The notes under the pieces: model-generated
The model's database searches: none
The model's input: the letters and a program-made list of their open reading frames with translations, nothing else
Told to the model about the DNA's origin: nothing
Shown here: piece after piece, positions 17,631 to 62,671 of the stretch
Layout of the letters: each line of letters starts with the position of its first letter
Numbering within the stretch: the stretch's first letter is position 1
Translations under genes and position numbers: made by a program
Source of the DNA: a bacterium
Lineage (GTDB): Bacteria > Patescibacteriota > Minisyncoccia > UBA6257 > 2-01-FULL-56-20
DNA: 64,000 nucleotides
Assembly (NCBI GenBank): GCA_027310625.1
Contig: DAIDAM010000003.1
Span: 67,278 to 131,277, forward strand
Direction of reading: 5' to 3'

Positions 17631-17635
17631 CTTTT

Positions 17636-18765: not shown

Positions 18766-19185
18766 TTATGCCGATGTTTTCATAACAATTGTGCTCTTGA
18801 AAGGAAGTTTGTGCGAAGCCCTGCGCAACGCTTCCTTTGCGTCTTCGCGGCTGATGCCGTCAACCTCAAAAATTATTCTTCCCGCTCTTACGGGAAAAAC
18901 ATAATGGTCAACGCTGCCCTTTCCGCCGCCCATTGTCGTTTCCGGAGGCCGCTGCGTTATCGGCTTGTCGGGGAAAACCCGTATCCAAAGACGGCCCTGA
19001 CGCTTGAGGAAGTGCGTTATTGCGCGGCGCGCGGCTTCTATCTGCCTCGAAGTGAGGCGCGCCGGCTCCGTCGCCTTAAGCCCATATTCTCCGTAGTTCA
19101 GCTCGAGGCCTCTCGTTTCCTTAAGTCGCCCTTTGGAGCGGCCCTTTTGCCATTTGCGATGTTTGACTTTTTTCGGTATCAACAT
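18766..19185 (-). CDS. rplP: 50S ribosomal protein L16
   Basis: L16 signature. Confidence 0.93.
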
Positions 19186-19195
19186 TTTTGATGTA

Positions 19196-19278
19196 TCGCG
19201 CGAATTTACGAATTTTTACGAACATACGAATTTACGGTGAGCATAATAGAAGTTATTCGTAAGTTCGTAATTCATTCG
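19196..19278. repeat. intergenic palindromic element, ACGAATTT family
   Basis: inverted repeat nearly identical to 17636-17735. Confidence 0.6.
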
Positions 19279-20705: not shown

Positions 20706-21059
20706 TTATGCTGTTTTCTTTGTCTCCGCAGGCGCTGCCGGTTGAACAGCGGTTTCGGCTTTTTGCTCAAGCTCCCTTTGTATTCTCCCTCCGTGCTTCA
20801 CGAATTTCCTCGTGGGGGCGAACTCGCCGAGGCGGTATCCAACCATGTCTTCGCTGACTTTCACTTCCACAAAATTCTTTCCGTTGTGCACCGCAAACGT
20901 ATATCCGACCATTTCCGGAGAAATCTCCGAAGAGCGCGACCACGTTTTAATCGGCGTTCCCTCGCCGGGTTTCCCGCGCGATATCTTCTTCAATATGTCA
21001 GGCGCCACATAGGGCGGTTTTTTTGATGATCTGGACATCTCTTTTGCTTTTATCGGCAT
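20706..21059 (-). CDS. rpsS: 30S ribosomal protein S19
   Basis: S19 signature. Confidence 0.92.
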
Positions 21060-21142
21060 AAATCAGCTATCATCCGCATCTATCAGCGTAGTTAAGGTTG
21101 AACGCTGATTTATGCTGATTCTGCCGATAGACGCTGATGTAT
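21060..21142. repeat. intergenic palindromic element, ATCAGC/GCTGAT family
   Basis: inverted ATCAGC…GCTGAT arms. Confidence 0.6.
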
Positions 21143-23821: not shown

Positions 23822-23900
23822 CTTTTTTATCGCTCGAATAAGCGAATATTACGAATTTACGAATTCGTATGTTCGTAAAAATTCGTAAATTCGCGCGATA
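23822..23900. repeat. intergenic palindromic element, ACGAATTT family
   Basis: cgaataagcgaatattacgaatttacgaattcgtatgttcgtaaaaattcgtaaattcg. Confidence 0.6.
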
Positions 23901-24163
23901 CCTAACAAAAACGCCGCCAAGGCATAGCCCCGCGGCCATATCCTTGTGGAATCCGCCCTGGGCGGACCATTAAAGAGACGGACAAAGTGTATATTAAACA
24001 AAGCAAGGTTGTCAACCAGGCAGTAGAAATGCGATTTGGATTAAAAAACTCAATCGCCGCAGGCGATTTTGGTCGCATTTTCGTTACCTGATCAATCGCA
24101 ACAAAAAAACCCGCGGTCAGGTTGACCCGGGTGGGCAGTAGGTCTGCCCGGTCCTTGCTGGAT

Positions 24164-26401: not shown

Positions 26402-28528
26402 TCACTTCTTTTTGCCCTCGATAATCAGCTGCGCCACGTTTTGCGGCGCTTGCTCATATCTATCAAACTCCATATTGAATGAACCCCTGCCCTGCGTCAG
26501 CGAGCGGAGCGAAGTCGCATAGCCGAACATTTCCGAAAGCGGAACTTTGGCGTCTATAATTTTCACGTTTGTCCTGTCGCCTATCGTTTCTATCTTTCCT
26601 CTCCTTGAGTTTATATCTCCCGTGACTTCGCCGAGGAAGTTTTGCGGAATTATCACTTGCACTTTCATTATCGGTTCGAGAATCACCGGTTTCGCGCGCT
26701 TCGCCGCCTCCTGAAAAGCGATTGAGCCGGCGATTTTGAAAGCCGCTTCCGAAGAGTCAACTTCGTGAAAAGAACCGTCGTAGAGGGCGACTTCCGCGTC
26801 AACCATCGGATAATGCGCAAGCACTCCTTTATCAAGCGCCTCTCTCACGCCTTTCTCAACGGCGGGAATGAACTCGTTCGGGATTATCCCTCCCCTTATT
26901 TCGTTCTCAAAAACGAATCCCTTTCCTCTTTCAAGCGGCTTCACGCGCAGCCATACGTGACCGTATTGCCCGCGTCCGCCCGATTGTCTGATGTATTTTC
27001 CTTCCGCCTCCGCTTCGCCGGTTATCGTTTCCTTGTAAGCGACCTGCGGACGCCCGACGTTCGCTTCCACGCTGAATTCTCTTTTCATTCTGTCAACGAT
27101 TATTTCAAGGTGAAGCTCGCCCATTCCGGAAATAATCGTTTCGCCGGTTTCGGGGTCGCCGGCAACGCGGAAAGTCGGGTCTTCGTCGGCGAGCCGGCGA
27201 AGCGCGATGCCCATTTTTTCCTGGTCGGCTTTCGTCTTCGGCTCAATTCTTATGCCGATGACCGGCTCGGGGAAAACAATCTTTTCAAGAACAACCGGGG
27301 AGTCGGGACTGCAAAGCGTGTCGCCGGTGCCGGTGTTTTTGAGACCGACTATCGCGGCTATCTCGCCCGCGTAAACCTCTTCCACTTCTTCCCGCTGGTT
27401 GGCGTGCATCCGCACAATTCTTCCGACGCGCTCCTGCTCGCCTTTCGTCGCGTTCAGAACGTAAGAACCGCGTTTCAGAACGCCCGCGTAATTTCTGAAA
27501 TAAGTCAAACTGCCCACGTAAGGGTCGTTGGCGATTTTGAAAGCAAGCGCCGTAAACGGTTCGGCGTCGTCGGGTTTTCTTGAAATTTCCTCTCCTGTTT
27601 TCGGATTACTTCCCTTAACCGGAGGCAAATCGAGCGGCGAAGGAAGATAATCAACGACCGCGTCCAGAACCAGCTGCACTCCTTTGTTTTTGAGCGCCGA
27701 GCCCGTGAACACCGGAACAATTTTGTTCGCTATCACGGCCTTTCGAAGCGCGCGCCGCAATTCATCGAGCGTGATTTCTTTTTCGGCGAGATATTTTTCC
27801 ATTACGGCATTGTCGGAGTCCGCAATCGCTTCGATAAGTTCGTGACGATACTTTTTAACATCCGCTTTCATCTCTTCGGGAACGGGGATTTCAACGATGC
27901 GTTCCCCTTTATCGCCGTGGAATTCAAAAGCTTTTTCCTGCAGTAAATCAACGACGCCGCGGAAAGTCGATTCAATTCCGAGCGGCAACTGCACGCGATA
28001 AGCGTGCGGCGTAAGGCGTTCCCTTATTGAGGCAAAGCTGCGTTCAAAGCTCGCGCCCATGCGGTCAAGCTTGTTGATGAAGCAAATTCGCGGAACATTG
28101 TATTCGTCGGCGTAGCGCCAGTTTGTCTCGGACTGCGGCTCGACGCCGGCGACGCCGTCAAAAACGACGACCGCGCCGTCAAGAACGCGGAGCGAGCGCT
28201 TGACCTCCACGGTGAAATCAATGTGTCCGGGAGTGTCAATGAGATTTATCCTGTGCTCGTATTCTTTCCTGGTGCCTGGTGCCTGGTTCCTGGTCACTGC
28301 ATAGGTCGGCGTCCAGAAGGCCGTCGTCGCCGCGGCCGTAATCGTTATGCCGCGCTCTCTTTCCTGCTCCATCCAGTCCATCACCGTGTCGCCCTCGTGA
28401 ACCTCGCCGATTTTATACGAAACGCCGGTGTAAAAAAGCACGCGCTCGGAAACGGTAGTTTTCCCAGCATCTATATGAGCAATAATTCCTATATTACGAG
28501 TTTTTTCGATCGGATAAGTTCGCGGCAT
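26402..28528 (-). CDS. fusA: elongation factor G, with a short in-frame heptamer-repeat insertion near the N-terminus ([12 protein letters not shown])
   Basis: EF-G GTPase and domains II-V; CTGGTGC x4 tract at 28268-28300. Confidence 0.96.
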
Positions 28529-29003
28529 TGATTTATCGCACGAATTTACGAATCTTTACGAACATACGAATTATTATTAACAATTCTCTTAAAAATAACA
28601 CCTTTAGACGTAAAATTTGCTAGGATGGCGAGTGGCAAATTGCTTGCTTTGAGATAGTTAAAAATCTGCTCCGCGTTATGACGAGAAAACGCCACACCCT
28701 TTTTAATCTCAATTATTACTTTTTCTTCAACTAAAAAATCGCATCTTTGTCTGCCAACTGCTTTACCATGAAACATAACGGGCAACAAAACTTCTCGCCT
28801 AAATTTTAATCCTGCATCCTCGAATGCTAATGCCACTGCGCGTTGATAATAATTTTCCGAGTAACCAGAGCCGAGTGCATTGCTGACATCGAATAGCGTT
28901 CCAACAATTTTGTAGCTCAGCTCGGGCTCAATAATGTCGCTCCTTCGCAACTTTCTCTCGCTCATAATGATTCGTAAGTTCGTAATATTCGCTTATTCGC
29001 GCG
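28529..29003. repeat. ACGAATTT-family palindromic element whose two arms (28529-28560 and 28966-29003) are separated by an inserted GxxExxY gene
   Basis: left arm atcgcacgaatttacgaatctttacgaacatacgaatt; right arm attcgtaagttcgtaatattcgcttattcgcgcgat. Confidence 0.6.
28546..28965 (-). CDS. GxxExxY family protein (PD-(D/E)xK-like; the family is associated with 23S rRNA intervening sequences)
   Basis: [21 protein letters not shown]…[13 protein letters not shown] motif pattern of the GxxExxY family. Confidence 0.75.
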
Positions 29004-29004
29004 A

Positions 29005-29472
29005 TCAGCGGGCAAAGTGCGCGAACGCCCTGTTGGCTTCCGCCTGCCGGTGCATATCCAGCTTCTTTTTCACCGCGTCTCCTTCATTTTTGGCGGCGGC
29101 AATTATTTCAGCGGCAAGTTTTTCATGCATCGGTTTTCCTTTTTTCGAGCGCGCGGCGTTGACAATCCAGCGCACACCGAGGATGAAACGGCGTTCGGGA
29201 CGCACCTCGCGCGGAATCTGGTAGTTCGCGCCTCCGACACGCTTTGAAAAAACTTCCAGCATCGGCGATGCGTTTGTAAGCGCCTGCTCAAAAACGCTGA
29301 CTGGCTCTTTTTTTGTTTCTTTTTTTATTTTCTCAAAAGCGCCGTAAACCGCCTTTCGCGCCGCGCTTCTCTTCCCTTCCCTCATCACATAATTTATCAG
29401 GCGCCCCACATCAACTCGCCCGTAAAGCGAATCCGGCTGATGATGTTTTTTGTAAACTCGTTTCTTTCTCAT
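29005..29472 (-). CDS. rpsG: 30S ribosomal protein S7
   Basis: S7 signature. Confidence 0.93.
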   Translation of the reverse strand: MRKKRVYKKHHQPDSLYGRVDVGRLINYVMREGKRSAARKAVYGAFEKIKKETKKEPVSVFEQALTNASPMLEVFSKRVGGANYQIPREVRPERRFILGVRWIVNAARSKKGKPMHEKLAAEIIAAAKNEGDAVKKKLDMHRQAEANRAFAHFAR

Positions 29473-29550
29473 TTAAGTATCGCACGAATTTACGAATTTT
29501 TACGAACATACGAATTCGTAAGTTCGTAATATTCGCTTATTCGAGCGATT
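29473..29550. repeat. intergenic palindromic element, ACGAATTT family
   Basis: cgcacgaatttacgaatttttacgaacatacgaattcgtaagttcgtaatattcgcttattcgagcg. Confidence 0.6.
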
Positions 29551-31761: not shown

Positions 31762-31941
31762 GCCTCTGTGGTGAAACGGATATCATGACTGCCTTCCCTG
31801 CCCGCCGCAATTTGCCCTCGTGGTGAAATGGATATCACGTCAGGCTTCGAACCTGAAGTTCTAGGTTCAAATCCCGGCGAGGGCACGCGGCAAAGGCAGG
31901 CGGGGAAGCAGTCGTTGGGGGTTCGAATCCCTCCGGAGGCG
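31762..31941 (+). tRNA. interrupted tRNA-like gene. 5' part at 31762-31797 (acceptor, D-arm, 5' anticodon stem); 3' part at 31906-31941 (3' anticodon stem, T-arm TTCGAAT, acceptor, G73, no CCA). An ~110-nt insert lies in the anticodon loop. If spliced after C36, the loop would read CTTCCAA (Gly-UCC); identity unresolved.
   Basis: hand-folded: acceptor gcctctg/cggaggc, D-stem gtga/tcat, anticodon stem actgc/gcagt, T-stem ggggg/ccctc; insert forms a 9-bp helix ttccctgcc/ggcggggaa plus gccgc/gcggc. Confidence 0.5.
31814..31885 (+). tRNA. tRNA-Arg (anticodon TCG), complete 72-nt cloverleaf, nested inside the insert of the 31762-31941 tRNA-like gene
   Basis: acceptor gccctcg/cgagggc, D-arm tggtgaaatggatatcacg, anticodon stem tcagg/cctga with loop cttcgaa, T-loop ttcaaat, A73. 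Confidence 0.7.
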
Positions 31942-37838: not shown

Positions 37839-37860
37839 CTAAGGAAGTCCGACTTCCTAA
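37839..37860. repeat. REP-like palindrome (ctaaggaagtccgacttcctaa)
   Basis: member of the TTAGGAAGTCGGACTTCCTAA family. Confidence 0.7.
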
Positions 37861-37876
37861 ATGTTATAATTACAGC

Positions 37877-38578
37877 ATGACGAGACCGCGAATAATTCGG
37901 AACGAAATTTACCATGTCCTTAACCGTGGCGTAGATAAGCGAGCAATTTTCTCAGACGATAACGACCGCCTGCGGTTTATTCATAACCTCTTTGAGTTTA
38001 ACGACACCGCACCTGCACCCAATCTCGCCTACCATCTCGGCAAAAAACAATCTAAGGAAGTCGGACTTCCTAAGATTGAGAGGAGACGGCGGGAACTTTT
38101 GGTGGAAATTCTCGCGTTTTGCATGATGAAAAATCACTATCATCTTTTGGTCAGGCCGAAGGCTGATAATTTTCTAACGTTATTTATGAGAAAACTGGGA
38201 ACAGGGTACACCAATTATTTTAATCAAAAATATAAGCGGAGCGGAGCGCTTTTCCAAGGGAAATACAAAGTGGTGCACATTAACAATGATAGACATTTTA
38301 TTCATCTCCCCTACTACATTCACTTTAATCCATTAGACGGCTTTGCTCCGAGTTGGAGAGAAAAGGAAATAAAGGACCACAAAAAAGCAATGGAATTTTT
38401 GGAGAACTATCGCTGGAGCAGTTTTCCGGACTATATCGGCAGGAAAAATTTTCCTTCAATCACGCAAAGAGAATTTTTACTAAAGTTTTTCGGCGGCCCG
38501 GAGGAATACAAACGCAAAACGACAGAATGGCTAAAAGCAATCGATTTCGAGGCAATACACGACGTTGCACTAGAATAA
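37877..38578 (+). CDS. REP-associated tyrosine transposase (RAYT, IS200-like Y1 transposase); contains an internal REP copy at 38052-38074
   Basis: HxH motif (NHYHLLV) and catalytic Tyr region (LPYYIHFNP); flanked by REP palindromes. Confidence 0.8.
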   Translation: MTRPRIIRNEIYHVLNRGVDKRAIFSDDNDRLRFIHNLFEFNDTAPAPNLAYHLGKKQSKEVGLPKIERRRRELLVEILAFCMMKNHYHLLVRPKADNFLTLFMRKLGTGYTNYFNQKYKRSGALFQGKYKVVHINNDRHFIHLPYYIHFNPLDGFAPSWREKEIKDHKKAMEFLENYRWSSFPDYIGRKNFPSITQREFLLKFFGGPEEYKRKTTEWLKAIDFEAIHDVALE

Positions 38579-38585
38579 TTAATAA

Positions 38586-38606
38586 TTAGGAAGTCGGACT
38601 TCCTAA
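38586..38606. repeat. REP palindrome TTAGGAAGTCGGACTTCCTAA (perfect)
   Basis: perfect 21-bp palindrome. Confidence 0.8.
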
Positions 38607-38623
38607 GAAAAAAACAAGCGGCG

Positions 38624-38878
38624 TTAGTCGTAAATGTCTTTGCGATGGCCAATGGCAAAAAATACCGCTTTATCGTCTCTAAAATAAAAAAGCGCCCGAT
38701 AGCGGCGTGTGATACGAAAAGAAAACACGCCGGGAAGTTCTTTGTTCCTTTTGGTGTGCAATCTTGGGTCGAGCCAATTTTTCTTGAAGATGTTTTCCTG
38801 CCGATTGAAAAGTTTCCTTATTTCCGAGGGTAATTTACCTAAATCACTGACAAAATCCGGTGTCTTATGGACAACCAT
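38624..38878 (-). CDS. RelE/ParE family toxin
   Basis: …FRITRRYRALFYFRDDKAVFFAIGHRKDIY fits the RelE/ParE C-terminal pattern. Confidence 0.7.
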   Translation of the reverse strand: MVVHKTPDFVSDLGKLPSEIRKLFNRQENIFKKNWLDPRLHTKRNKELPGVFSFRITRRYRALFYFRDDKAVFFAIGHRKDIYD

Positions 38879-38900
38879 TTTTGGTTTTTTAATGCCTGAC

Positions 38901-39089
38901 TCAGGAAGATTTTACGCTCTTGAGATAATTTTTCCTGATTTGAGAAGAGTTCTTATATTCTTTCAAACTTTCTTCAGGAATCAAAAGCAAAAACTTTCCG
39001 AGCTGGTCGCGGATAGCCCTGATTTCAACCAAAAGGTTCTTCAAGACAATGCCCTGCTCTCTATTTTCAGTTGTAGTTTTAGTGGTCAT
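38901..39089 (-). CDS. putative antitoxin for the downstream RelE/ParE toxin
   Basis: 62-aa ORF immediately upstream of the toxin. Confidence 0.4.
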   Translation of the reverse strand: MTTKTTTENREQGIVLKNLLVEIRAIRDQLGKFLLLIPEESLKEYKNSSQIRKNYLKSVKSS

Positions 39090-39184
39090 AGTGATATGGT
39101 AGCAAAACTACAAACGTACAGCAAGTTTTTCTGCTACCATTATATCACAATTGTTGCTTAATGGTAACGGGTAATTATTTGTGG

Positions 39185-39206
39185 CTTAGGAAGTCGGACT
39201 TCCTGA
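39185..39206. repeat. REP palindrome copy
   Basis: cttaggaagtcggacttcctga. Confidence 0.75.
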
Positions 39207-39209
39207 ATA

Positions 39210-39458
39210 TCATCTCGGATGTTTCATTATCGTTAAAATTCTGTAAGCGTCTTTCTCGATTGTAAAATAAAATCTATAGCTCCTGCTGATTCGCGCCTGC
39301 CAAACATTTTCTGCTTCATCGTATTTCTTGGCGCGTAGCGAGGGATGCATAAAATTCTTTGAAAGCAAGGAGAACTGCTTATCGGCTGCTTTCTGCAGAT
39401 TTTTGGGCAAGCCGTTGTAATCGCGAACAGCCCTTTCTGAAAAACTTAACCTCATCAT
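39210..39458 (-). CDS. RelE/ParE family toxin
   Basis: …WQARISRSYRFYFTIEKDAYRILTIMKHPR. Confidence 0.7.
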   Translation of the reverse strand: MMRLSFSERAVRDYNGLPKNLQKAADKQFSLLSKNFMHPSLRAKKYDEAENVWQARISRSYRFYFTIEKDAYRILTIMKHPR

Positions 39459-39472
39459 CGGCTGGAACTACT

Positions 39473-39694
39473 TTATTCAGCATCCAGTTTAGCCAATGAT
39501 TTCTTGAATTCCCTGACAGTTTTGAACGGGCCCGAAAAACGGCCGGCCGCGAAATCCGCCAGTCCTTCATTAATTGCTTTATTAATCAAATTTTGTCCCT
39601 TACTCGATATCTCTGCCTTTTTCGCCTTGAAAGCTCGGAGGGGGATTTTCACAATCAGATATTTCAAAGTTTTTTCTACCGTCACCTGCGGCAT
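39473..39694 (-). CDS. ParD/RHH-like antitoxin
   Basis: 73-aa ORF upstream of the toxin; C-terminal segment (…INEGLADFAAGRFSGP…) resembles ParD. Confidence 0.5.
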   Translation of the reverse strand: MPQVTVEKTLKYLIVKIPLRAFKAKKAEISSKGQNLINKAINEGLADFAAGRFSGPFKTVREFKKSLAKLDAE

Positions 39695-39745
39695 ATTTCA
39701 ATGTTAACAAGGACGCTGCTCTACGTCAACAATAATGCTTTATGG

Positions 39746-39767
39746 CTTAGGAAGTCGGACTTCCTTA
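39746..39767. repeat. REP palindrome copy
   Basis: cttaggaagtcggacttccttag. Confidence 0.75.
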
Positions 39768-39993
39768 GAGCGCTTCACTAGTTATGTTCCTTGAAATTAC
39801 GGTTTAGTCGGAGGCGGCGTGTTCACAATCGGAGCCGGAACGGGACCGGCAACCGGAGCGACCGCGGGATTCGGAGATGTTGATATCGCGAGCATTGGTA
39901 TTACGGAAGTTCCTCACGGAGTTGTCGGCGGCGGAACGTTGCCCCTGTGGCTGCCCAATCAGCTTTGTTAATAATATGTTGCAAAAGACCCTA

Positions 39994-41971: not shown

Positions 41972-42415
41972 TTAGTTTCTACGAGTTTCCTTATCCTTTA
42001 TTACCCTATAGGTTGACGATATAAAGTTCTGTAATTTCAGCGACGCCTTTTCGGCAATCACCTTATATTCGGAGTAAGATTTCTTGTCGGCAATTTTGTT
42101 TCTTTCATTCATAAGCTCAAGCCAATAATCATTTGCCTCCATTAAAGAACCGCGGGCATTGTAAAAAAACTTTATCTTGTCCAAGTAATGAAATCTTCCA
42201 TAACCCTCCGCCACATTAGCACCGAAAGAATCTGTTGCTGTAATAAATTGGTCACCCATCGTTTTTTTATCCTGCCAATTTAATCTCTCGTATATTTTCC
42301 ATCCAACCTTTGATAATTCTCTGGCTAATTTATAAATTTCCAAATCCTGTAACTTGATGTAATTCCTTTTAGTTTCCACGAGTTTCTTAGTTTCAATCAG
42401 TATCCTAATTTCCAT
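41972..42415 (-). CDS. four-helix-bundle protein (TIGR02436-type, associated with 23S rRNA intervening sequences)
   Basis: …FGANVAEGYGRF…LMEANDYWLEL…; flanked by GTTTCTTAGTTTC direct repeats. Confidence 0.8.
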   Translation of the reverse strand: MEIRILIETKKLVETKRNYIKLQDLEIYKLARELSKVGWKIYERLNWQDKKTMGDQFITATDSFGANVAEGYGRFHYLDKIKFFYNARGSLMEANDYWLELMNERNKIADKKSYSEYKVIAEKASLKLQNFISSTYRVIKDKETRRN

Positions 42416-44744: not shown

Positions 44745-45170
44745 TTAGGGCTTGGAATTCGGTGTTTTTTTATGGAGCTTGGCGCGGAGAGCTTGAATTT
44801 GTCTCATCAAAACAAGATAGCGGTTTCGCAAATTGTCATGTTCCTGTTCTGTGACATACTCTAATTTAAATGCCAAAGTAAGCGCGGTCAGCACTTCGTT
44901 AATCGAAGTTGCCGCCATCATAAGAAAATGCAGAAACTCTCTTGTTCCCCTCCCGCTTCCCTCCGCTATGTTGAAAGACACAGAAGATGCGGCTCTTCGC
45001 AGTTGGCTCGTCAACCCAAAAAGTTCGCCTTTCGGAAATTTCGAAGTAGTTTTATAAACCTCCAGCGCCAATTCCATACTTTCTTGCCAAATTCGCAATT
45101 TTTCATAATTTGGAGCAGAGTCCTTTAGACTCAAGCTTGGGTCTTGGTTCTTGGAACTTAGTTCACTCAT
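44745..45170 (-). CDS. four-helix-bundle protein (TIGR02436-type)
   Basis: LRIWQESMELALEVYK…NIAEGSGRGTREFLHFLMMAATSINEV; flanked by CTTGGAA-type heptamer repeats. Confidence 0.8.
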   Translation of the reverse strand: MSELSSKNQDPSLSLKDSAPNYEKLRIWQESMELALEVYKTTSKFPKGELFGLTSQLRRAASSVSFNIAEGSGRGTREFLHFLMMAATSINEVLTALTLAFKLEYVTEQEHDNLRNRYLVLMRQIQALRAKLHKKTPNSKP

Positions 45171-46385: not shown

Positions 46386-48944
46386 ATGTATCGCTTTTTA
46401 GAAATTTTTCCCGGAGCGCTTTCGTGGCTGACTCTTATCTTACTTGTTTCTCTTTCCCGCTACGCGCCGGCGTTCGTCGCCGTTTTCATCATACTTTTTG
46501 ACATCTACTGGCTTTTGAAAACGATTTATCTCTCGCTGCATCTCCGCTCAACTTTTTCGGTTATGAAAAAAAACCTGAAGGTGAACTGGCTCAATGAGCT
46601 GAAGGCACTGCCGCATAATCCCAATGGCCCGAATAGAATCCAAATGCCCCGAATTATAGAAAAGGATCTCTCTTATAAACTAAGCGGGGTTTTCTTCAAA
46701 GTTCATAACCAACTCGGCAGGTTCTGCAGAGAGCGTCAATATGGCGATGCCGTCGCAAAGGAACTTGAATCCCTCGGCGTAAATTTTCAGCGCGAAGTTG
46801 CCGTTGCGGTCGCCGGGCGAAAATCCAATTTCGTAGATTTTGTCGTTGAAAGCAAAATCGCAATAGAACTGAAGACGAAAGACATAATTGACAAAGAAGA
46901 TTATTTCCAACTTCAAAGATACCTTAAAGCGCTGGGATTGGAATTGGGCATAATAGTCAACTTTAGAAGAAAACACTTGAATCCCAAACGCGTTCTCAAT
47001 TCTGACTTCCTTTACAAGTATTCGGCTGATTCAGATACATTCGGCAATTCGGATTATGTGGTCAATAGATATTCGGACAATTCGGATTCATTCGGATATT
47101 CGGATTATGTGAAATCCTGGGAAGACATTTATCATTTGGTGATATTGCCGATGTACCGCGAGCCGTACGAGGTCGTGAAAGGAAGTTTTGAAAGCATATC
47201 TAAAGGAAACTATCCGCTGGAAAAGTTAATTGTCGTCCTGGCGACGGAAGAACGCGCCGGCGCCGAAGCGAGGAAAACGGCTGAGAAAATCAGGCGCGAG
47301 TTCGGCGGCAAATTTTTCAAGTTTTTGATTACCACGCACCCCGCGAATCTCCCCGGCGAAATTCCCGGCAAGGGTTCCAACGAAACCTGGGCGGCGAAAG
47401 AGGCGAAAAGATTAATCATTGACCCACTGGTCAATGCGCAGACCTACGCAGACAACACGCAGACCGACGCAGAAAACGATTTTCTGTATCCAGACCTGAC
47501 ATATGAAATCAGAGGTGCGATATTTTCCATTAAGAAAAAGCTCGGCCTCGGACACAAAGAAGTTGTTTATCAAAAAGCACTGGAAGAGGAATTTAATCGA
47601 CTAGGTTTGAATTTCGAAAAAGAAAAAACGGTGGATATTGCATATAATAACAAAAAAGTTGGTGTCTACCGCCCAGATTTTGTAATTGAGGATAAAATTA
47701 TTTTGGAACTGAAGGCATTACCATTTATGGGCAAATATGAAAAAAGGCAAGTTTGGCAGTATTTAAAAGGAACGGAATATAAACTAGCTATGTTGGTAAA
47801 CTTCGGCGGTAGCGATATTCGCATAGATAGAATAGTTTACGACACAGCTCGCGCAAGTCAGCGTAAGTCTGCGTTAAGTCAGCGAGAGTCAGCGCTGAAA
47901 TATGAAAATGTTTTAGTGTCGGTTTTCGACATTGACACACAGATATTTCCGGAGTATTTCGGGCGCCTCACATATGTCTTTTTGAAATCCGAAGACAAAT
48001 TGCAGGCGATTTACCAGCCGATACCGCTTTTCATAAATAACATCTACGACGCGCCGGCGCTCGCGCGCGTGATTTCCTTTTCAAGCACCTTCTGGCAGAT
48101 GATGCAGCAGTCGCGGCCGGAACGGCTGACGTCTTTTTCGTCGCAGTCAATCCCCTTGCGGGCGCTCATTGACATCGGCTACTGGCACAAAAACGTCGTC
48201 TCCGAGGACTCGCGGATTTTCTGGCAGTGCTATCTCCGCTATCACGGGAACTTCCGCGTCGAACCGCTTTTTTACCCGGTTTCGATGGACGCCAACGCCG
48301 CGCCGACATTTTGGAGAACGCTCAAAAATAATTACTTGCAGCACCGCCGCTGGGCCTGGGGCTGCGAAAACATTCCCTACTTGCTCTGCGGCAAACATAA
48401 TCCGAATCCACGAATGCATCCGAATAACACGAATAGGAGTCCAGATAATAAATTAGATTCGGAACATTCGGATAGATTCGGGGATTCGGATTATGCGGAG
48501 GGTTTCCTCCACAACAAAAAAATCCCTCTCCGCAAAAAGCTCTACTGGTCGTTCAATGTAATTGAAGGATTCCATTCCTGGGCGACGAACGCGCTGATAA
48601 TTTTCGCTCTCGGCTGGCTGCCCGTTCTTTTGGGCGGAGAAGGTTTCGGGATTTCCATTTTGTCGCGGAGCCTGCCTTCGATTACAAGATTCATCATTCA
48701 ACTCTCGATGGTCGGAGTCGCCACCGCCGCTTTCTTCAGCATTCTTCTTCTGCCGCCGCGAAAAGAACCTCTCGAATGGCATCAGTATATTTGGTATCTC
48801 CTCCAATGGCTTCTTCTGCCCGCGACACTCATAATTTTCGGGTCCATCCCCGCGCTCGAGGCGCAAACGCGGCTGATGGTCGGCGGAAAATGGCGGCTCG
48901 GATTCTGGCCGACGCCGAAAACGAGAACCAATAATAGAAGCTAG
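46386..48944 (+). CDS. processive family-2 glycosyltransferase (cellulose-synthase-like; GKGxN, DxD, Q(H)RRW motifs) carrying two in-frame GxxExxY domain insertions (~46644-47000 and ~47481-47840) plus heptamer-repeat tracts
   Basis: GT2 motifs VILPMYREP, GKGSNETWAAKEA, VFDIDTQ, QHRRWAWG; inserted segments each align with the free-standing GxxExxY gene at 28546. Confidence 0.8.
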   Translation: MYRFLEIFPGALSWLTLILLVSLSRYAPAFVAVFIILFDIYWLLKTIYLSLHLRSTFSVMKKNLKVNWLNELKALPHNPNGPNRIQMPRIIEKDLSYKLSGVFFKVHNQLGRFCRERQYGDAVAKELESLGVNFQREVAVAVAGRKSNFVDFVVESKIAIELKTKDIIDKEDYFQLQRYLKALGLELGIIVNFRRKHLNPKRVLNSDFLYKYSADSDTFGNSDYVVNRYSDNSDSFGYSDYVKSWEDIYHLVILPMYREPYEVVKGSFESISKGNYPLEKLIVVLATEERAGAEARKTAEKIRREFGGKFFKFLITTHPANLPGEIPGKGSNETWAAKEAKRLIIDPLVNAQTYADNTQTDAENDFLYPDLTYEIRGAIFSIKKKLGLGHKEVVYQKALEEEFNRLGLNFEKEKTVDIAYNNKKVGVYRPDFVIEDKIILELKALPFMGKYEKRQVWQYLKGTEYKLAMLVNFGGSDIRIDRIVYDTARASQRKSALSQRESALKYENVLVSVFDIDTQIFPEYFGRLTYVFLKSEDKLQAIYQPIPLFINNIYDAPALARVISFSSTFWQMMQQSRPERLTSFSSQSIPLRALIDIGYWHKNVVSEDSRIFWQCYLRYHGNFRVEPLFYPVSMDANAAPTFWRTLKNNYLQHRRWAWGCENIPYLLCGKHNPNPRMHPNNTNRSPDNKLDSEHSDRFGDSDYAEGFLHNKKIPLRKKLYWSFNVIEGFHSWATNALIIFALGWLPVLLGGEGFGISILSRSLPSITRFIIQLSMVGVATAAFFSILLLPPRKEPLEWHQYIWYLLQWLLLPATLIIFGSIPALEAQTRLMVGGKWRLGFWPTPKTRTNNRS
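47000..47115. repeat. ATTCGGA/ATTCGGC heptamer-type repeat tract encoding …DSDTFGNSDYVVNRYSDNSDSFGYSDY… inside the GT2 gene; a similar tract at ~48405-48490
   Basis: period-7 direct repeats. Confidence 0.7.
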
Positions 48945-50172: not shown

Positions 50173-50214
50173 TCATGTTAATCTTAAATTCTCAACAATC
50201 TCAAATTCTCAACT

Positions 50215-50250
50215 TGTTAACATTTTACGCGATCGCGTAAAATGTTAACA
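50215..50250. promoter_or_regulatory. 36-bp perfect palindrome TGTTAACATTTTACGCGATCGCGTAAAATGTTAACA
   Basis: perfect inverted repeat; a second near-identical copy at 50819-50853. Confidence 0.6.
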
Positions 50251-50304: not shown

Positions 50305-50811
50305 TTAAATTATCTCGGCTTCTTTTGCCTCAAAAAATTTAATATATGGGAAAAGTTGAAGTTTTCTCAAAGATTCGACAAATTGTTCCGGCAATGGCGC
50401 CGGTCCAAGCCATAAACTCTTTTGAAGCATCTCGAATCCAAGACATAAAAGCTCGGCTCTCAACCAATCGCGTTTTTTCTTATGTATCTCTGGGACATCA
50501 AAAGAAATGACAATACTTTTGGGATTTCGCTTGGCAGTTTTTTCGCTGTGGGTCGGGAAAAGAGAAATTTTGTTTGCAAAGTATCCGCGCCCGGCTTTTG
50601 TAAGCCGCCATATACCCTTTTTATTTTCTACAAATCCCCTCTTTTTGAGACGTGAAAGTGTAACACGTATCGCAGAATCAGAAGCATCCTCAAAACCGCG
50701 ATAAATTCTACCATCAGAAAAAGGACTTGCACCGCTTAATTTTCTGCGCATCAAACGATAGCCGTCGTGATAACTGAATAAAATAGTCAAGATGTCATCC
50801 GTTAATCCCAT
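50305..50811 (-). CDS. winged-helix regulator-like protein (PaaX-like N-terminal HTH: RVTLSRLKKRGFVENKKGIWRLTKAGRGYF); function unknown
   Basis: wHTH-like segment; gene bracketed by two copies of a 34-36 bp palindrome. Confidence 0.45.
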   Translation of the reverse strand: MGLTDDILTILFSYHDGYRLMRRKLSGASPFSDGRIYRGFEDASDSAIRVTLSRLKKRGFVENKKGIWRLTKAGRGYFANKISLFPTHSEKTAKRNPKSIVISFDVPEIHKKKRDWLRAELLCLGFEMLQKSLWLGPAPLPEQFVESLRKLQLFPYIKFFEAKEAEII

Positions 50812-50818: not shown

Positions 50819-50853
50819 TATTAACATTTTCAGCGATCGCGTAAAATGTTAAT
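50819..50853. promoter_or_regulatory. second copy of the TTAACATTTT(C/A)(A/C)GCGATCGCGTAAAATGTTAA palindrome
   Basis: near-perfect inverted repeat. Confidence 0.6.
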
Positions 50854-50864
50854 AAAAATTTTCA

Positions 50865-53800
50865 TTGAAAAGATTGAACAGGTTGAGACAATCCCTTAAA
50901 ATAAAATCAATGTCGGAGATTTTGGAACCGCGATACGACCACCAAAAGCACGAAAAGGAAATTTACGAACTCTGGGAAAAGAGCGGGTATTTTAATCCGG
51001 ATAATTTGCCTACGGCAAGTTCGGAGTTCGGAGTTCGAAGTTCGAAGAATAAAAAAATATCTCAAACGAAACCTCGAACCTCGAACCTCGAACCGTTTTC
51101 CATTATCATGCCTCCGCCGAACGCGAACGGCTCGCTACATCTCGGGCACGCCGTGTTCGTCGCGTTGCAGGACATACTCATAAGATTCTGGCGCATGCGC
51201 GGCAAAAAAGCGCTCTGGCTTCCGGGGGCGGACCACGCCGGCTTTGAAACGCAGGTTGTCTTCGACAAAAAACTTGAAAAGGAAGGGCGGAATAGATTCA
51301 CCATTCCGCGCGAGGAACTTTTCAAAGAAATCTGGGACTTCACCCAGCACAATAAAAAAATAATGGAAGAGCAGTTGCGTAAACTCGGAGCGTCGTGCGA
51401 CTGGAGCCGCGAAAAATTCACGCTTGACCCGGCAATCATTAGAATCGTCTATGAAACTTTTGAAAAACTTTACAAGGACGGACTTCTTTACCGCGATTTG
51501 CGCGTCGTCAACTGGTGTCCGAAACACAAAACCGCGCTCTCCGACCTGGAAGTGAAGCACGAAGAGCGTCTGGACCAGCTCTACTACATAAAGTATGGGC
51601 CACTAACATTAGCGACAGTGAGACCGGAAACGAAATTCGGCGACACGGCGCTTGCCGTGAACCCGAAGGACAAACGCTATTCAAAATACATCGGAAAAGA
51701 AATACGCGCCTTGGGCCTGCTCGGCAAACTCACATTCAAAGTCATCGCCGACGAAGCCGTTGACCCGAAATTCGGGACGGGGGTCATTAAGGTCACGCCC
51801 GCGCATGACCCCGCGGACTTTGAAATCTGGCAAAGGCACAAAAAAGAAATTCCCGGTCCGAAAATAATCATTGACGAAAACGGGCGGCTTACCGGCGAAA
51901 CAGGAAAATTCGCAGGGATGAAAGTCGCGGAAGCGAGAATAAAAGTCGCCGAAGCGATGAAAGAAATCGGCATTCTTGAAAAAGTTGAGAACGATTACAA
52001 ACACTCCGTTGCCGTCTGCTACAAGTGCGGCAACGTGCTCGAGCCGATTCCGAAGATGCAATGGTTCATCGCCATGACGGCGAAACCGCATCAATCAAGA
52101 GACCGGAGACCGGAGACTGGAGACCGGAAAAAATCGTTGCGCGATTTGGGAATCGAGGCAGTTGAAAAGAAAAAAATAAAATTTTATCCGGCGCATTCCA
52201 AAAAAGTCATTCTTCATTGGCTGAAAAATATCCGCGACTGGAACATTTCGCGGCAAATCGTCTGGGGCATAAGAATCCCCGTCTGGTACTGCCTCGCCTG
52301 CTCCGCCCGCCCCGAGAGCAATCGAGGGGAGCCGAAGATAAACATTAATCAGGAAGTGAAATCGCGCTGGTTTCTCGTAAGGCACGGGGAAACGGATTGG
52401 AACAAGGAAGGACGCATAATGGGACAATCCGACATTCCACTCAATAAAACTGGGATGGCGCAGGCGGAAGAAGCCGCGCGGGAATTAAAGCCGCACAAGG
52501 TAGATCTTATTATAAGTTCTGACTCGGCGCGCTGTCGCCAAACTGCGGAAATAATTAAAAAAGAGACGGGCGCGGAAATAATCCTCGAAAAAAAATTAAG
52601 AGAGCGCCACCACGGAGACATCGAGGGATTGCTACGAAAGGATGTTTTTGAACAATATCCCCGTATTTACGAATACAGCTACGAAGGCAAATATATGAAT
52701 GCCGAAAGCTATCGCGAATTGGAAGAGCGCGCATGGGAAGTTTTCTCGTCGCACCATTCAAGGCACGGCCATAAAAACGTCGTTTTGATTACGCACGGTG
52801 GGACGATTAGGATGCTTATAAAAAGAATAAAAAATCTTACTCCGGAAGCGGCTCTCTCAATACCTTCCAGAAAAAACGCGGAGATAATCCAGCTTGACGT
52901 TTTGGATAAATGCGAAAATTGCGGCGGACATTTTTACGAGCAGGACCCCGACGTTTTTGACACCTGGTTCTCGTCCGGGCAATGGCCGTTTGCGACGCTG
53001 ATGACGAGCGACAAAAAAATGGGTTTCCATGAAGAAGTTGTCCCGCAGGTTTTGGACGGCAAAACCAAGACATACCGCTTGCGCGACCACGGATTCAAGG
53101 TCGGCGACAAGGTTTTGTTTGAAAACTCCGCTACCAAAAAAATCTTCGGATATGGAATTATCACGGAAGCAAAAAAAACCACGATAGACAAAATAGATTA
53201 CACAGACAAAAGCCATTACAAAACCTATAAAAATCTGGACGAGTTGATGACGGCGTTCAAACACAAGAACCCAGAAAAAACTTTTACTTCCAAATCTCCT
53301 GCTTATCTTTACGCTTACGATTTTTACCCGGCGAAAAATTTGGAGACCGACTTCGAAACTTTTTATCCGACCGATGTGATGGAAACCGGATACGACATAC
53401 TTTTCTTCTGGGTGGCGAGGATGGTCATGCTCGGAATTTACACGACGGGAAAAATTCCTTTCAGAACTGTTTATCTCCACGGCTTGGTTCTCGACAAAGA
53501 CAAAAAGAAAATGTCCAAGTCCAAAGGCAACGTTATTGACCCGCTCGGCGTCGCCGAAATTTACGGAAGCGACGCGCTCCGCATGGCGCTGGTCGCCGGC
53601 AACACCGCCGGCAAGGATATCGTCATCTCCGAAGACAAAATCCGCGGCTACAGGAATTTTGCGACGAAAGTGTGGAACATCAGCCGATTCATTTTAATGA
53701 ATAAAATGAAAGACATCAGACATCAGACATCAGACATCAGGGTAAAATTAACGGCTTCAGACAAAAAAAATATTGCGGAAGCCGAAAAAATCAAAGATAA

Positions 53801-54176
53801 AGTCGGAAAACACATTGAAAAATTCGAGTTTCATCTCGCGGCGGAAACGGCATACCATTACATCTGGCATACCTTCGCCGACAAAATAATTGAAGAATAT
53901 AAGCCGCGACTAAAAGCCGAAACGGGTTCCGAGGAAGCTCTCGGAGGCGCGGCGAGCTCGGCATCCGGAGGATTCGCCGCGCCGAGAGCGCAGGCGGGCG
54001 CTCGCCGCAGGAGCGAGCGAACCGCCGATTCCGAGGGGCCCGTTGCGGCTTATCAAACACTGGAAGCAATTCTTCTGGAATGCTTGAAAATGCTCCATCC
54101 GTTTATGCCGTTCATAACGGAGGCGATATTTCAGAAGCTAAACAAAGGAGAAATGCTGATGATAGAAAGATGGTAA
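50865..54176 (+). CDS. valS: valine-tRNA ligase with an embedded histidine-phosphatase (PGAM-like) domain (~52360-52910), a second ~100-aa insertion, heptamer tracts and a GC-rich C-terminal insertion
   Basis: HIGH (PPPNANGSLHLGH) and KMSKS motifs, editing domain; insert has RHGETDWN, RERHHGD and ITHGG motifs of the histidine phosphatase superfamily. Confidence 0.9.
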   Translation: MKRLNRLRQSLKIKSMSEILEPRYDHQKHEKEIYELWEKSGYFNPDNLPTASSEFGVRSSKNKKISQTKPRTSNLEPFSIIMPPPNANGSLHLGHAVFVALQDILIRFWRMRGKKALWLPGADHAGFETQVVFDKKLEKEGRNRFTIPREELFKEIWDFTQHNKKIMEEQLRKLGASCDWSREKFTLDPAIIRIVYETFEKLYKDGLLYRDLRVVNWCPKHKTALSDLEVKHEERLDQLYYIKYGPLTLATVRPETKFGDTALAVNPKDKRYSKYIGKEIRALGLLGKLTFKVIADEAVDPKFGTGVIKVTPAHDPADFEIWQRHKKEIPGPKIIIDENGRLTGETGKFAGMKVAEARIKVAEAMKEIGILEKVENDYKHSVAVCYKCGNVLEPIPKMQWFIAMTAKPHQSRDRRPETGDRKKSLRDLGIEAVEKKKIKFYPAHSKKVILHWLKNIRDWNISRQIVWGIRIPVWYCLACSARPESNRGEPKININQEVKSRWFLVRHGETDWNKEGRIMGQSDIPLNKTGMAQAEEAARELKPHKVDLIISSDSARCRQTAEIIKKETGAEIILEKKLRERHHGDIEGLLRKDVFEQYPRIYEYSYEGKYMNAESYRELEERAWEVFSSHHSRHGHKNVVLITHGGTIRMLIKRIKNLTPEAALSIPSRKNAEIIQLDVLDKCENCGGHFYEQDPDVFDTWFSSGQWPFATLMTSDKKMGFHEEVVPQVLDGKTKTYRLRDHGFKVGDKVLFENSATKKIFGYGIITEAKKTTIDKIDYTDKSHYKTYKNLDELMTAFKHKNPEKTFTSKSPAYLYAYDFYPAKNLETDFETFYPTDVMETGYDILFFWVARMVMLGIYTTGKIPFRTVYLHGLVLDKDKKKMSKSKGNVIDPLGVAEIYGSDALRMALVAGNTAGKDIVISEDKIRGYRNFATKVWNISRFILMNKMKDIRHQTSDIRVKLTASDKKNIAEAEKIKDKVGKHIEKFEFHLAAETAYHYIWHTFADKIIEEYKPRLKAETGSEEALGGAASSASGGFAAPRAQAGARRRSERTADSEGPVAAYQTLEAILLECLKMLHPFMPFITEAIFQKLNKGEMLMIERW

Positions 54177-54273
54177 GGGCTACGAAATTACGAATCAGTA
54201 CGAATATACGAATTCGTACATTCGCCTGCCTGCCGCAGGCAGGTAAAAATCTATAAATTAGTAACCTGACTTA

Positions 54274-55506: not shown

Positions 55507-55794
55507 ATGCGACATTGCGCAATTTGCGGAAAAGGTTCAATAATCGGAGGTAGAAGGAAGCTCCTGCGCGGGCATTACAATCCCGTTTCGAAATCGAGAA
55601 AATACCCCAATCTTCAGTGGGCCCGCCTGCCATCGCCTGCGGCTCAGTCCTCTGGCGGGCAGGCGAGAATCCCCGCCAAAGGCGGGTCCCTGCCCGACGG
55701 CGGGCGCGGCGCCTCGGGTGGAAATGGCGTACGAAAACTTATCTGCGCTCAATGCTTAAAAACGTTGAACCGCAAAGCCAAGACGAAAAAATGA
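55507..55794 (+). CDS. rpmB: 50S ribosomal protein L28 carrying a ~33-aa GC-rich in-frame insertion (55620-55720)
   Basis: L28 N- and C-terminal conserved segments (MRHCAICGKG…; …RKLICAQCLKTLNRK) separated by a Gly/Pro/Ala-rich segment of ~70% GC. Confidence 0.75.
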   Translation: MRHCAICGKGSIIGGRRKLLRGHYNPVSKSRKYPNLQWARLPSPAAQSSGGQARIPAKGGSLPDGGRGASGGNGVRKLICAQCLKTLNRKAKTKK

Positions 55795-55913: not shown

Positions 55914-56228
55914 CAAATTACAATAAAGGTTCGATTCTCCCGCCATTGTTCGAGCGAAGCGAGTTTACAATGGCGTGGATCCCGTACTCTCTCAATCCCA
56001 AAAAAAACACAAAATATAAAAATAGCGGCGGGATCGCGCCAACTCTAACTTCGCTTTCGCTCAGAGAGTTGCGGGACGCCTGGCCCGACACTAGAAATCG
56101 CTTGGCGAGTATTCGAGCTTAGCGTTTCTTGTGCCCCGCCGCAGGCGGGGCCGCCATATGCACCTTCCTTCGCTCCCGTCTTCACAAGGGCTACGGCGGG
56201 CAAGAAAGCTTCGGAAGAGTTATCAACA

Positions 56229-59990: not shown

Positions 59991-60353
59991 TCATTTTTCA
60001 AAAACAAGATTTTTCAGGCGGCGACTGCTCAAAAAATTCTTGGGAAGCATTCTTCTTATCGCCTCTCTTATTACGCCCTTCGGATTTCTTTCAAACGCCT
60101 GCTCAAAAGTAAGCTTTTTCAAGTGTCCCTGATATCCCGTGTGCCTGTAATAAACTTTGTTTTTGAATTTCCTCCCGGTAAGCGTTATGTCGCGGTAATT
60201 TTTCAAAAGAACTTTGTCCGCGCCGATAAGCCGCGGATTGTAATTCGCCGATTTCTTGCCCTGCAGAATCGTCGCGATTTCGGAGGCCAGTCGTCCCAAT
60301 CTTTTATTTTTGGCGTCAATTATATAGTCCATCTTTTTCGTAATCAGCATCAA
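59991..60353 (-). CDS. rplM: 50S ribosomal protein L13
   Basis: L13 signature. Confidence 0.92.
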   Translation of the reverse strand: MMLITKKMDYIIDAKNKRLGRLASEIATILQGKKSANYNPRLIGADKVLLKNYRDITLTGRKFKNKVYYRHTGYQGHLKKLTFEQAFERNPKGVIREAIRRMLPKNFLSSRRLKNLVFEK

Positions 60354-60354
60354 T

Positions 60355-60545
60355 CAGTCGTCATCCGCACCCGCCTGCCAACGCCTGCCAGTGAAGTTAT
60401 GATATAGTTTCAAAGTAAATGTCATCTTTTTGTTATTGCCGAGTTTCATTGGATGGCTATGGCGGGCAGGTAAATCAGCGTCAAAAGTATTCCCCGCAGC
60501 GATGAACGCTGATAAATGCTGATTTTGGGCGGATTAACGCTGATG
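60355..60545. repeat. intergenic palindromic element, ATCAGC/GCTGAT family
   Basis: catcaatcagtcgtcatccgc … cgctgataaatgctgattttg. Confidence 0.55.
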
Positions 60546-62491: not shown

Positions 62492-62494
62492 GTT

Positions 62495-62660
62495 TTTATG
62501 GTATCCGCATTAATCAGCTGTCATCCGCATTTATCAGCGTTCTTGCTGTGAAAAAGTTTTTGACGCTGATTTACCTGCCCGCCGAAGCCCTCGCCTTGCC
62601 GAAGCCGACGGCGAAGCGCAGGTCGGCGCAGGCGGGTGCCGATTTTGACGGATTTATGCT
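62495..62660. repeat. intergenic element: ATCAGC/GCTGAT arms plus a GC-rich segment (GCCCTCGCCTTGCCGAAGCCGACGGCGAAGCGCAGGT) that is also found inside the mnmA 5' region (11858-11895)
   Basis: 38-nt near-identity between 62582-62620 and 11858-11895. Confidence 0.65.
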
Positions 62661-62671
62661 GATATTCCATT

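Follow-up and report, generated by a model that had tools for sequence, protein, structure and literature searches.

What are the short GC-rich segments that lie in frame inside housekeeping genes of an uncultivated bacterium, and how did they come to be there? The question arises at rpmB (55507-55794, + strand), which encodes a 95-aa ribosomal protein L28 in a 64,000-nt stretch of contig DAIDAM010000003.1; this whole stretch is referred to as the window. Its host belongs to the Patescibacteria (Candidate Phyla Radiation, CPR), and besides valS, mnmA and other genes the window contains the S10-spc-alpha operons for ribosomal proteins. The nearest L28 and MnmA relatives are Paceibacteria metagenome-assembled genomes, with Liptonbacteria, Wolfebacteria and Jorgensenbacteria among them. 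The original prediction held that rpmB, valS, rpsB and mnmA are AT-rich genes interrupted by GC-rich structured inserts with the base composition of a foreign donor. Our reading, to which we give a probability of roughly 0.55, is that the segments are copies of 15-105 nt non-autonomous palindromic repeats that have spread within and between Paceibacteria genomes and apparently other uncultivated bacteria. The inserts have 71-81% GC compared to ~47% in the window (47.1% overall), and this is the contrast that remains: GC content at third codon positions is 55% over 36 conserved window genes, so the host genes are not AT-rich. An Rfam scan of the window returned five tRNAs and nothing else, so no curated RNA family accounts for the GC segments. 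Comparison loci from relatives and metagenomes are labelled with L-numbers (L001, L245 etc.). The related-locus set comprised the window and 86 loci (80 mnmA and 6 rpmB; 1.4 Mb in total), and a wider sample of fragmentary loci amounted to 2.6 Mb.

The L28 encoded in the window is 95 aa long compared to 60-72 aa in most of 154 homologues, the Pfam Ribosomal_L28 match is confined to residues 2-46, and an exact-protein look-up found no recorded entry identical to it. DNA alignment with five syntenic loci, in which the gene order valS-prsW-hsp20-rpmB is conserved, resolved 93 extra in-frame bases of 77% GC (within 55624-55722). Their excision yields a 64-aa L28, the usual size in relatives. The insert, with its hairpins, thus lies between conserved L28 segments as originally predicted: it forms residues 40-72 (PSPAAQ...GGN), between the conserved NLQWA and GVRKLIC. 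A 32-sequence alignment places the extra residues between the invariant PNLQ motif and GVRKLIC, and the other homologues have different short G/A/S/P/Q-rich peptides at the identical point, or none. In an AlphaFold model, strands 36-42 and 74-80 are paired and residues 43-73 have a predicted local distance difference test score (pLDDT) <50, so that the insert is modelled as a disordered loop at the tip of a beta-hairpin.

The insert is laid out as Q-W-A, E1, R-I, E2 (interrupted by E3), N-G-V-R-K. E1 (55624-55665, + strand) is 42 nt long, covers codons R40-A53 and has inverted repeats at its ends (CGCCTGCC...GGCAGGCG). L245, L001 and L005 also carry E1 at this site, the L005 copy with an additional 21 nt internally, and L003 and L247 lack it. 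E2 (55672-55722, + strand) is a 30-nt double hairpin, CCCGCC-AAA-GGCGGG followed by TCC^GCC-TCG-GGTGGA, that reads PAKGGS...ASGG; its first hairpin is cccgccaaaggcggg at 55672-55686. In the window E2 is broken by E3 and its final stem is decayed (GGTGGA), and the same site holds an intact 30-nt E2 in L003 and L247. E3 (55690-55710, + strand), a 21-nt hairpin (CTGCCCGACGGCGGGCGCGGC; LPDGGRG) nested within E2, is unique to the window copy and is missing from the E2 of L003 and L247. A sequence resembling it, CCTGCCTGACGGGCAGG, was found in the Hsp20 gene of L003. Only the window has both E1 and E2; relatives have E1 alone, E2 alone, or neither. The orthologue check by which the original prediction could have been refuted thus gave a mixed result: most L28 orthologues are without the segment, and close relatives have parts of it at exactly this site. 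By Hsp20 identity the window is nearest to L001 (72%, E1 only) and L247 (67%, E2 only). Because this pattern is patchy among the closest relatives, several gains or losses at one rpmB site are needed. The E1 and E2 junctions recur across independent assemblies (L001/L002, L003/L004, L005/L006 and L245/L246), which makes chimeric assembly an unlikely source of the inserts.

Conservation of the elements was measured in the L28 loci, which had been retrieved via the protein and not via the motif. Between genomes, E2 is identical at 27-28 of 29 positions (window compared to L003 and L247), and the E1 ends at 22-24 of 24 (window, L245 and L001), with 61-72% identity in the E1 centre. Third positions of the flanking L28 codons are 45-56% identical, compared to 93-100% for the stems. 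No covariation was seen in the stems, only sequence identity. Stems that are constant beyond synonymous-site saturation would point either to a sequence-specific insertion or homogenisation machinery, or to a cis-function within coding regions.

A similar insert had been predicted in valS, and the comparison bears this out. The valS element (53932-54036, + strand) is a composite palindrome of ~105 nt, in frame in the anticodon-binding region. The hairpin in full (53921-54044, 74% GC) folds as a single long structure (z = -4.5; 0/200 shuffles equally good). ValS has ~35 extra residues compared to L001 and L003, both of which are without the insert, and in L005 this site is occupied by a different one. 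Copies of the valS unit with 87-92% identity were found in L030 (one) and L037 (two), whose MnmA proteins are only ~52% identical to that of the window. None of these copies is within a long open reading frame (ORF). One L037 copy is directly upstream of an ORF that by eye is rpsP-like, and the one in L030 is interrupted by a 140-nt insertion nested within it. The rpsB insert (5589-5624, - strand) has 36 nt, LPAPDRAGGQAG, in the arrangement GCCTGCGC-ctgacc-GCGCAGGC then GGGCAGGCAGGC. It adds 12 residues in frame that are carried by 0/6 orthologues; the Pfam S2 match runs across it and its fold has z = -2.7.

The insert in mnmA at 11421-11440 is the perfect palindromic 20-mer CCTGCCTGCCGGCAGGCAGG, read in frame as PACRQAG. 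It brings a net gain of 21 nt in place of the conserved D: the window MnmA has GA[PACRQAGI]YVATGHY compared to GAD-YVATGHY in 80/80 orthologues. Beside the 20-mer (11410-11450, - strand; GGGATTTAC) a GAT, possibly the codon of this universally conserved Asp, persists out of frame. This would fit a 20-nt insertion with a 1-nt compensating insertion, and the window MnmA is now without that Asp. A 63-nt element (11848-11910, - strand; CCCGCCTTCG...GGCAGGCAGG) lies in a 5' extension of the mnmA ORF. MnmA orthologues begin ~35 aa later than the window ORF, whose start ~35 codons early is attributable to this element. The element is 96% identical over 50-51 nt to an intergenic 63-nt copy between rpsD and rpsK (62574-62636) and 89% identical to L036 1276-1336. 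The intergenic copy cuts a regular 10-nt-period ATCAGC array at a single point, without target duplication. A 23-nt target duplication at the mnmA 5' element was considered and ruled out, since there are synonymous differences between the two KVF.AMS copies.

All inserts in the window are a multiple of 3 bases long, in frame and stop-free. The orthologue comparisons of L28, ValS, MnmA (0/80) and RpsB (0/6) thus uphold a class of in-frame insertions with recurring hairpin families. The idea that one palindrome or its close variants lies at all the sites named in rpsB, in mnmA and between genes did not hold. The 20-mer is present once, with no other window site at <=3 mismatches. The rpsB palindrome is related but different, a supposed copy at 11835-11860 is the end of the 63-nt element, and the intergenic site predicted at 54221-54245 does hold a 19-nt variant (54225-54243).

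To what families do these hairpins belong? In the 1.4 Mb of related loci, 630 GC hairpins were counted, with TCCGCC/GGCGGA, CCTGCC/GGCAGG and CCCGCC/GGCGGG as dominant stems; the pyrimidine arm comes first in nearly all hairpins with these stems (67 compared to 10, p = 2e-11). Generic GC-rich hairpins are only moderately enriched (20 observed; global shuffles gave 8.8 +/- 2.3 and shuffles within 150-nt blocks 11.9 +/- 3.9), and it is from specific sequences that recur that the strong signal comes. There are at least two stem families, CCYGCC(YGCC)...(GGCR)GGCRGG and TCCGCC-N3/4-GGCGGA, the latter often as a 30-nt double hairpin. Termini of the type CCYGCCYGC...GCRGGCRGG bound units of 24 to 269 nt.

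The exact 20-mer was found in five more Paceibacteria loci (L001, L010, L013, L042 and L051), in L051 also within MnmA at a site different from that in the window. In IMG/VR it occurs at 41 sites in 35 stretches, compared to a rough expectation of <= ~1 that was estimated from an assumed collection size and composition. The IMG/VR contigs mostly have 54-68% GC, and the palindrome is often inside direct heptamer arrays. Two of the copies lie within tRNA-related sequence: at L118 515-534 the 20-mer is within a tRNA-like D-arm fragment, and at L042 16452-16471 it is in a 3' fragment of tRNA-Gly that is duplicated 48 nt downstream of the intact gene and resembles an attachment-site remnant.

E2 belongs to the family of 30-nt double hairpins, YCCGCC-N3-GGCGGR-TCCGCC-N3-GGCGGA. 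In relatives, the double hairpin was found in ValS, MnmA (two sites), TsaD and other ORFs, where it always reads [S/P]AxGGSAxGG, and in non-coding tandem arrays. The strict pattern was found in at least 120 metagenome stretches, with 123 sites among the matches listed, to which the following counts refer. The contigs range from 28 to 72% GC (mean 44.5%). Ninety-three of the 123 double hairpins are within ORFs of at least 150 aa, and 76 of these 93 (82%) are read as SAxGGSAxGG, compared to 12 as PPxADPPxAE and 5 in the third frame. On the sense strand, purines prevail in the first loop (AAA, encoding K, in 32/76) and pyrimidines in the second (TCN, encoding S, in 51/76), and the flanks are T-rich on the 5' side (TTT, 22/76) and A-rich on the 3' side (AAA, 37/76). 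The hosts include DnaE, FtsK, UvrC, AlaRS, LysRS, GyrB, MutL, RecG and UvrD, as well as DnaK, DnaJ, PolX, PGI and glycosidases. Two more hosts are a protein that has an LptC/OstA-like domain and a GH43 protein that by eye ends in something like a type IX secretion sorting domain, which Pfam did not report. Judged from these two proteins, the bacteria that encode them are unlikely to be CPR members. Three of the hosts (L137, L174 and L133) carry a second recurrent in-frame GC-rich peptide, (S)GTPPxxGG, as RPSGTPPQRGG, SRGTPPWQGE and LSGTPPPQGG, which suggests that there are more element families.

These observations bear on how the elements move and survive. Both intergenic short-period arrays and genes receive the elements, with no duplication of the target, and elements also enter one another. 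Identical units at unrelated sites, nesting, precise junctions, patchy occupancy and decay argue for small elements similar to the known REP, SDR, MITE and RPE repeats, which are compared below. Insertion would involve either a sequence-specific enzyme that recognises the hairpin in single-stranded DNA, or gene conversion with other copies as donors. In-gene survivors would be those with a length that is a multiple of 3 and no stop codons, the latter being guaranteed by the GC content of the elements, and they would add small flexible residues (G, S, A, P, Q and K) to surface loops. Surviving copies would then form part of the translated protein. That in-gene copies are probably translated, and filtered by selection on the peptide, is indicated by their frame bias, by lengths that are multiples of three and by their location in loops.

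Several points weigh against copies that spread as repeats. No transposase or other enzyme was linked to the elements. Among the longest ORFs listed for the longer CCYGCCYGC-bounded elements in the 2.6 Mb, no transposase-like ORF stood out, and no Pfam scan of them was done. A Y1_Tnp gene (37877-38578), which resembles a REP-associated tyrosine transposase (RAYT) and is the sole HUH/Y1 transposase gene of the window, was considered as the mover of the GC elements and rejected: it is flanked by AGGAAGTC-G-GACTTCCT and its sole homologue in the 2.6 Mb of loci (L229) by TAGCCCTAGG...CCTAGGGCTA, which are other palindromes that also differ from each other. In this region (37839-39769) the palindrome CTAAGGAAGTCGGACTTCCTAAG is present five times, once within the gene itself, in an arrangement like that of REPs around an IS200/RAYT-like gene. 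The near-identical assembly pairs L001/L002, L003/L004 and L005/L006 have no indels, i.e. no presence/absence polymorphism, so there is no direct sign of recent movement. The metagenome sample of double hairpins was selected on perfect stems, so that decay cannot be measured in it. The frame and orientation bias could reflect an insertion preference, given the TTT/AAA flanks, rather than selection. Finally, stem conservation above that of synonymous sites would equally fit a selected cis-function.

Could the hairpins instead be cis-elements selected by the host, such as protein binding sites, RNA processing or pausing signals or uptake-type sequences, that are kept where they are tolerated? 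Stem conservation far exceeds that of synonymous sites, and the same sequence is found in genomes with ~50% identical proteins and in contigs of 28-72% GC. The sense orientation favours K/S loops over R/F, intergenic copies are at gene ends and in operon spacers, and a tRNA-Arg gene in the window is bracketed by inverted termini of the same kind. The uptake sequences of Pasteurellaceae are also biased in reading frame within genes. On the other hand, the segments are insertions of 7-35 codons and not motifs that arise in place, and some copies have decayed (GGTGGA in the window E2, GGGAGG in L066). Site occupancy is patchy among close relatives, elements are nested in one another, their density (~0.05-0.2 per kb) is far under that of known uptake sequences, and the stems are identical without covariation. 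We thus consider a host-selected cis-element possible but unlikely.

A less probable explanation is that each segment originated de novo at its site, through slippage of GCCT or GCAGGC-type units or through template switching that builds palindromes, with no copying of elements. The 20-mer consists of (CCTG)2CC and its reverse complement without a loop, as would be expected from snap-back synthesis, and in E1 and in the array at 60343-60392 the 10-nt-period GCCTGCC units grade into ATCAGC. The same protein loops, such as the L28 tip and the C-terminal site of ValS, have also been struck repeatedly. However, identical sequences of 20, 30 and 63 nt, and 55-nt segments with 87-92% identity, at unrelated loci and in unrelated genomes could not be produced independently, and the strong asymmetry in arm order also argues against this origin.

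It is very improbable that the inserts are untranslated, being excised from the RNA or bypassed by the ribosome. The byps of Magnusiomyces mitochondria are GC-rich structured inserts in essential genes, and to this likeness the mnmA gene adds a possible Asp GAT codon that survives out of frame by the 20-mer. A precedent for bypass is T4 gene 60 (10.1101/2022.08.31.505936). Against this, every insert keeps the frame and has no stop codons, and one frame is used by 82% of the listed double hairpins in long ORFs. The flanks of the rpmB insert are, by eye, without a stop or a matching pair of take-off and landing codons, and no intron or known RNA family was detected. The least credible explanation, horizontally acquired foreign DNA or chimeric assembly joins, draws on the local GC of 71-81% compared to 47% and fails because the segments are too short, palindromic and repeated inside the window, have the same junctions in independent assemblies and have codon-exact boundaries that bring back the normal L28 length. 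The foreign-donor composition of the original prediction is thus better described as that of 15-105 nt palindromic repeats with copies in the window (96%) and in related and unrelated genomes than as pieces of acquired genes. Acquired DNA is more plausibly represented by a 281-aa ORF at 7640-8508 than by the short inserts, as this ORF has ~69% GC and no Pfam match and is the sole long GC-rich stretch in the window.

Further copies of the palindromic repeats lie outside the four genes. A 101-nt element (60370-60470), with termini CCCGCCTGCC...GGCGGGCAGG as in the 63-nt unit and an AT-rich interior, is located at the equivalent point of another ATCAGC array, and L179 has a similar 103-nt element. 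The 19-nt hairpin at 54225-54243 (CCTGCCTGC-C-GCAGGCAGG; z = -3.3) is intergenic, immediately after the valS stop, and adjoins an ACGAATT heptamer array. Another intergenic variant is CCTGCTTGCCGCAGGCAGG (10360-10378). The palindrome GCCTGCGCAGGC (1214-1225, - strand) encodes SLPAQAG at the N-terminus of a Ferric_reduct-like ORF, in a context, AAGCTTGCCTGCGC...GCAGGCGGGC, that is shared with the rpsB insert. A single hairpin TCCGCC-CTG-GGCGGA (23952-23966) is of uncertain coding status, and an intergenic hairpin downstream of tRNA-Pro (56133-56151; GCCCCGCC-GCA-GGCGGGGC) has an identical 17-mer in L011. At 31797-31904, the tRNA-Arg gene (31814-31886) is bracketed by CCTGCCCGCC and GGCAGGCGGG, the same inverted termini as those of the GC-rich elements.

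The elements had been predicted to be distinct from the heptamer repeats of the window. This holds for their sequences and not for their locations, as GC elements are embedded in short-period arrays at 54167-54243, 60343-60470 and 62493-62664, and the same palindromes break up heptamer arrays in other contigs. Nearly all ribosomal-operon spacers hold an inverted pair of short-period arrays, with ATCAGC per 10 nt or with ACGAATT-type heptamers. The hexamers in these inverted pairs are conserved and periodic, and the spacers between them are not complementary. Arrays were located in spacers at 5857-5975, 14633-14763, 18667-18796, 21042-21124, 60333-60528 and 62493-62664, and further ones at 17630-17677, 19185-19232, 23829-23909, 28525-28572, 29469-29549 and 54167-54224. 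AT-richer array units are also in frame within mnmA (10490-11947), as RINADFNAD, NSNIANSREYNEYKSFLNSPNSRTF, NADKNPRKSASNPRKSA and PETRDQKPE, and within valS (50910-54176, e.g. 53711-53754), as SSEFGVRSSKNKKISQTKPRTSNLE and DIRHQTSDIRV. An NPRKSA-type peptide is found again in L005 ValS and L077 MnmA.

Other features of the window were also observed. ValS contains an embedded, complete His_Phos_1 domain that is conserved in L001, L003 and L005, and an additional ~105-aa insertion found only in the window (residues ~488-665 and ~720-825 from the 50910 start). Small genes are wedged into conserved contexts at 28546-28965, 46386-48944, 41972-42415 and 44745-45170, and repeat arrays adjoin several of them. 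By eye, the ORF between fusA and rpsG resembles GxxExxY/PD-(D/E)XK proteins and two of the wedged ORFs resemble the four-helix-bundle '23S rRNA intervening sequence' proteins. Pfam placed two PDDEXK_3 domains inside a glycosyltransferase ORF. The ORF at 50305-50811 is flanked by inverted copies of TTAACATTTTACGCGATCGCGTAAAATGTTAA, with the core GCGATCGC, at 50214-50248 and 50821-50855.

No smaller units known to remodel essential proteins would exist than these elements, which affect ribosomal proteins, tRNA synthetases and enzymes of replication and repair across a huge section of the bacterial tree that is uncultivated. They would create surface loops specific to lineages, make the protein alignments and gene calls of CPR genomes inflated and less sharp, and provide a compact marker for gain and loss among close relatives. 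Together, the stem conservation, the frame bias and the hosts that do not look like CPR bacteria make the question of selfish element or cis-signal testable on existing metagenome, metatranscriptome and metaproteome series.

How do the elements relate to known systems? Rickettsia palindromic elements (RPEs) are dispersed palindromes found in frame in unrelated, often essential genes; the peptides they add can be accommodated by the fold of the protein, and related species have many copies in common (PMC10969869). The window elements are likewise dispersed palindromic repeats in frame in ORFs. Compared by description, however, RPEs are ~100-150 bp long and specific to Rickettsia, whereas the elements here have 15, 21, 30, 36, 42 or 63 nt, with only the valS unit (~105 nt) in the RPE range, are GC-richer than the host, modular and nested, and also lie in tandem arrays. 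Repetitive extragenic palindromes (REPs) and REP doublets forming hairpins (REPINs) are short GC-rich imperfect palindromes that are conserved across related genomes and sometimes arranged as doublets (PMC3116915). Here too GC-rich palindromes of 20-40 nt are present in many copies, and the window has a RAYT-like Y1_Tnp gene. In contrast to the extragenic REPs, 93 of the 123 listed double hairpins are in ORFs of at least 150 aa and the window copies are in rpmB, rpsB, mnmA and valS. REPs have a GTAG/CGTC tag, whereas by inspection the elements begin with CCYGCC or (T)TCCGCC. A RAYT gene has its own REPs on its flanks, and the RAYT-like gene of the window has an unrelated, AT-richer palindrome there.

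MITEs (miniature transposable elements with inverted repeats) share with the elements their terminal inverted repeats and variable interior, as seen in the series from 20-nt back-to-back ends to units of 36, 63, 101 and 269 nt. Unlike MITEs, the elements have no target-site duplication at the three best-defined junctions (62574/62636, rpmB E1, and E3 within E2), and the direct repeats around the L010 copy are part of a pre-existing tandem array. As for a parent insertion sequence with the same ends, no transposase-like ORF stood out among the longest ORFs listed between such termini in the 2.6 Mb of fragmentary loci. DNA uptake sequences occur at ~1 per kb and arise by substitution, whereas the elements here are clear insertions at ~0.05-0.2 per kb. 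The small dispersed repeats (SDRs) of heterocystous cyanobacteria, reportedly described by Elhai et al. in 2008, are said to be nested hairpin units of 21-27 nt, typically in tandem heptamer arrays. The 20-mer and the double hairpin match these features as ~20-30 nt units that are nested and in heptamer arrays, and differ in phylum (the hosts here are Patescibacteria and others) and probably in sequence. To our knowledge, a systematic, frame-biased occupation of housekeeping genes has not been described for SDRs. Coding palindromes are known from the mitochondria of Nematomorpha (PMC6649704). These, like the GC clusters and byps of yeast mitochondria, are inserts that look mobile, are rich in GC or perfectly palindromic, and lie in coding genes of a lower-GC genome. 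They are organellar, however, and byps disrupt the frame and the ribosome skips them, whereas the frame is kept and biased here.

Literature searches for the sequences, the peptides and in-frame repeats in CPR bacteria found no description, and the peptide and primer matches were synthetic linkers. There is a substantial chance that the double-hairpin family is undescribed and widespread. More tentatively, and at somewhat less than even odds in our judgement, the elements as a whole may represent an undescribed class of ultra-small GC-rich hairpin elements, in frame in housekeeping genes across Patescibacteria and at least some diderms. Its clearest member, the 30-nt double hairpin, has the consensus TTT-TCCGCC-AAA-GGCGGA-TCCGCC-TCN-GGCGGA-AAA, read F-SAKGGSASGG-K. 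Collectively, the elements most resemble small repeats of the REP, SDR, MITE and RPE kind, and they depart from RPEs in size, from REPs in their extragenic location, tag and cognate RAYT, and from MITEs in target duplication, which are defining features of those systems.

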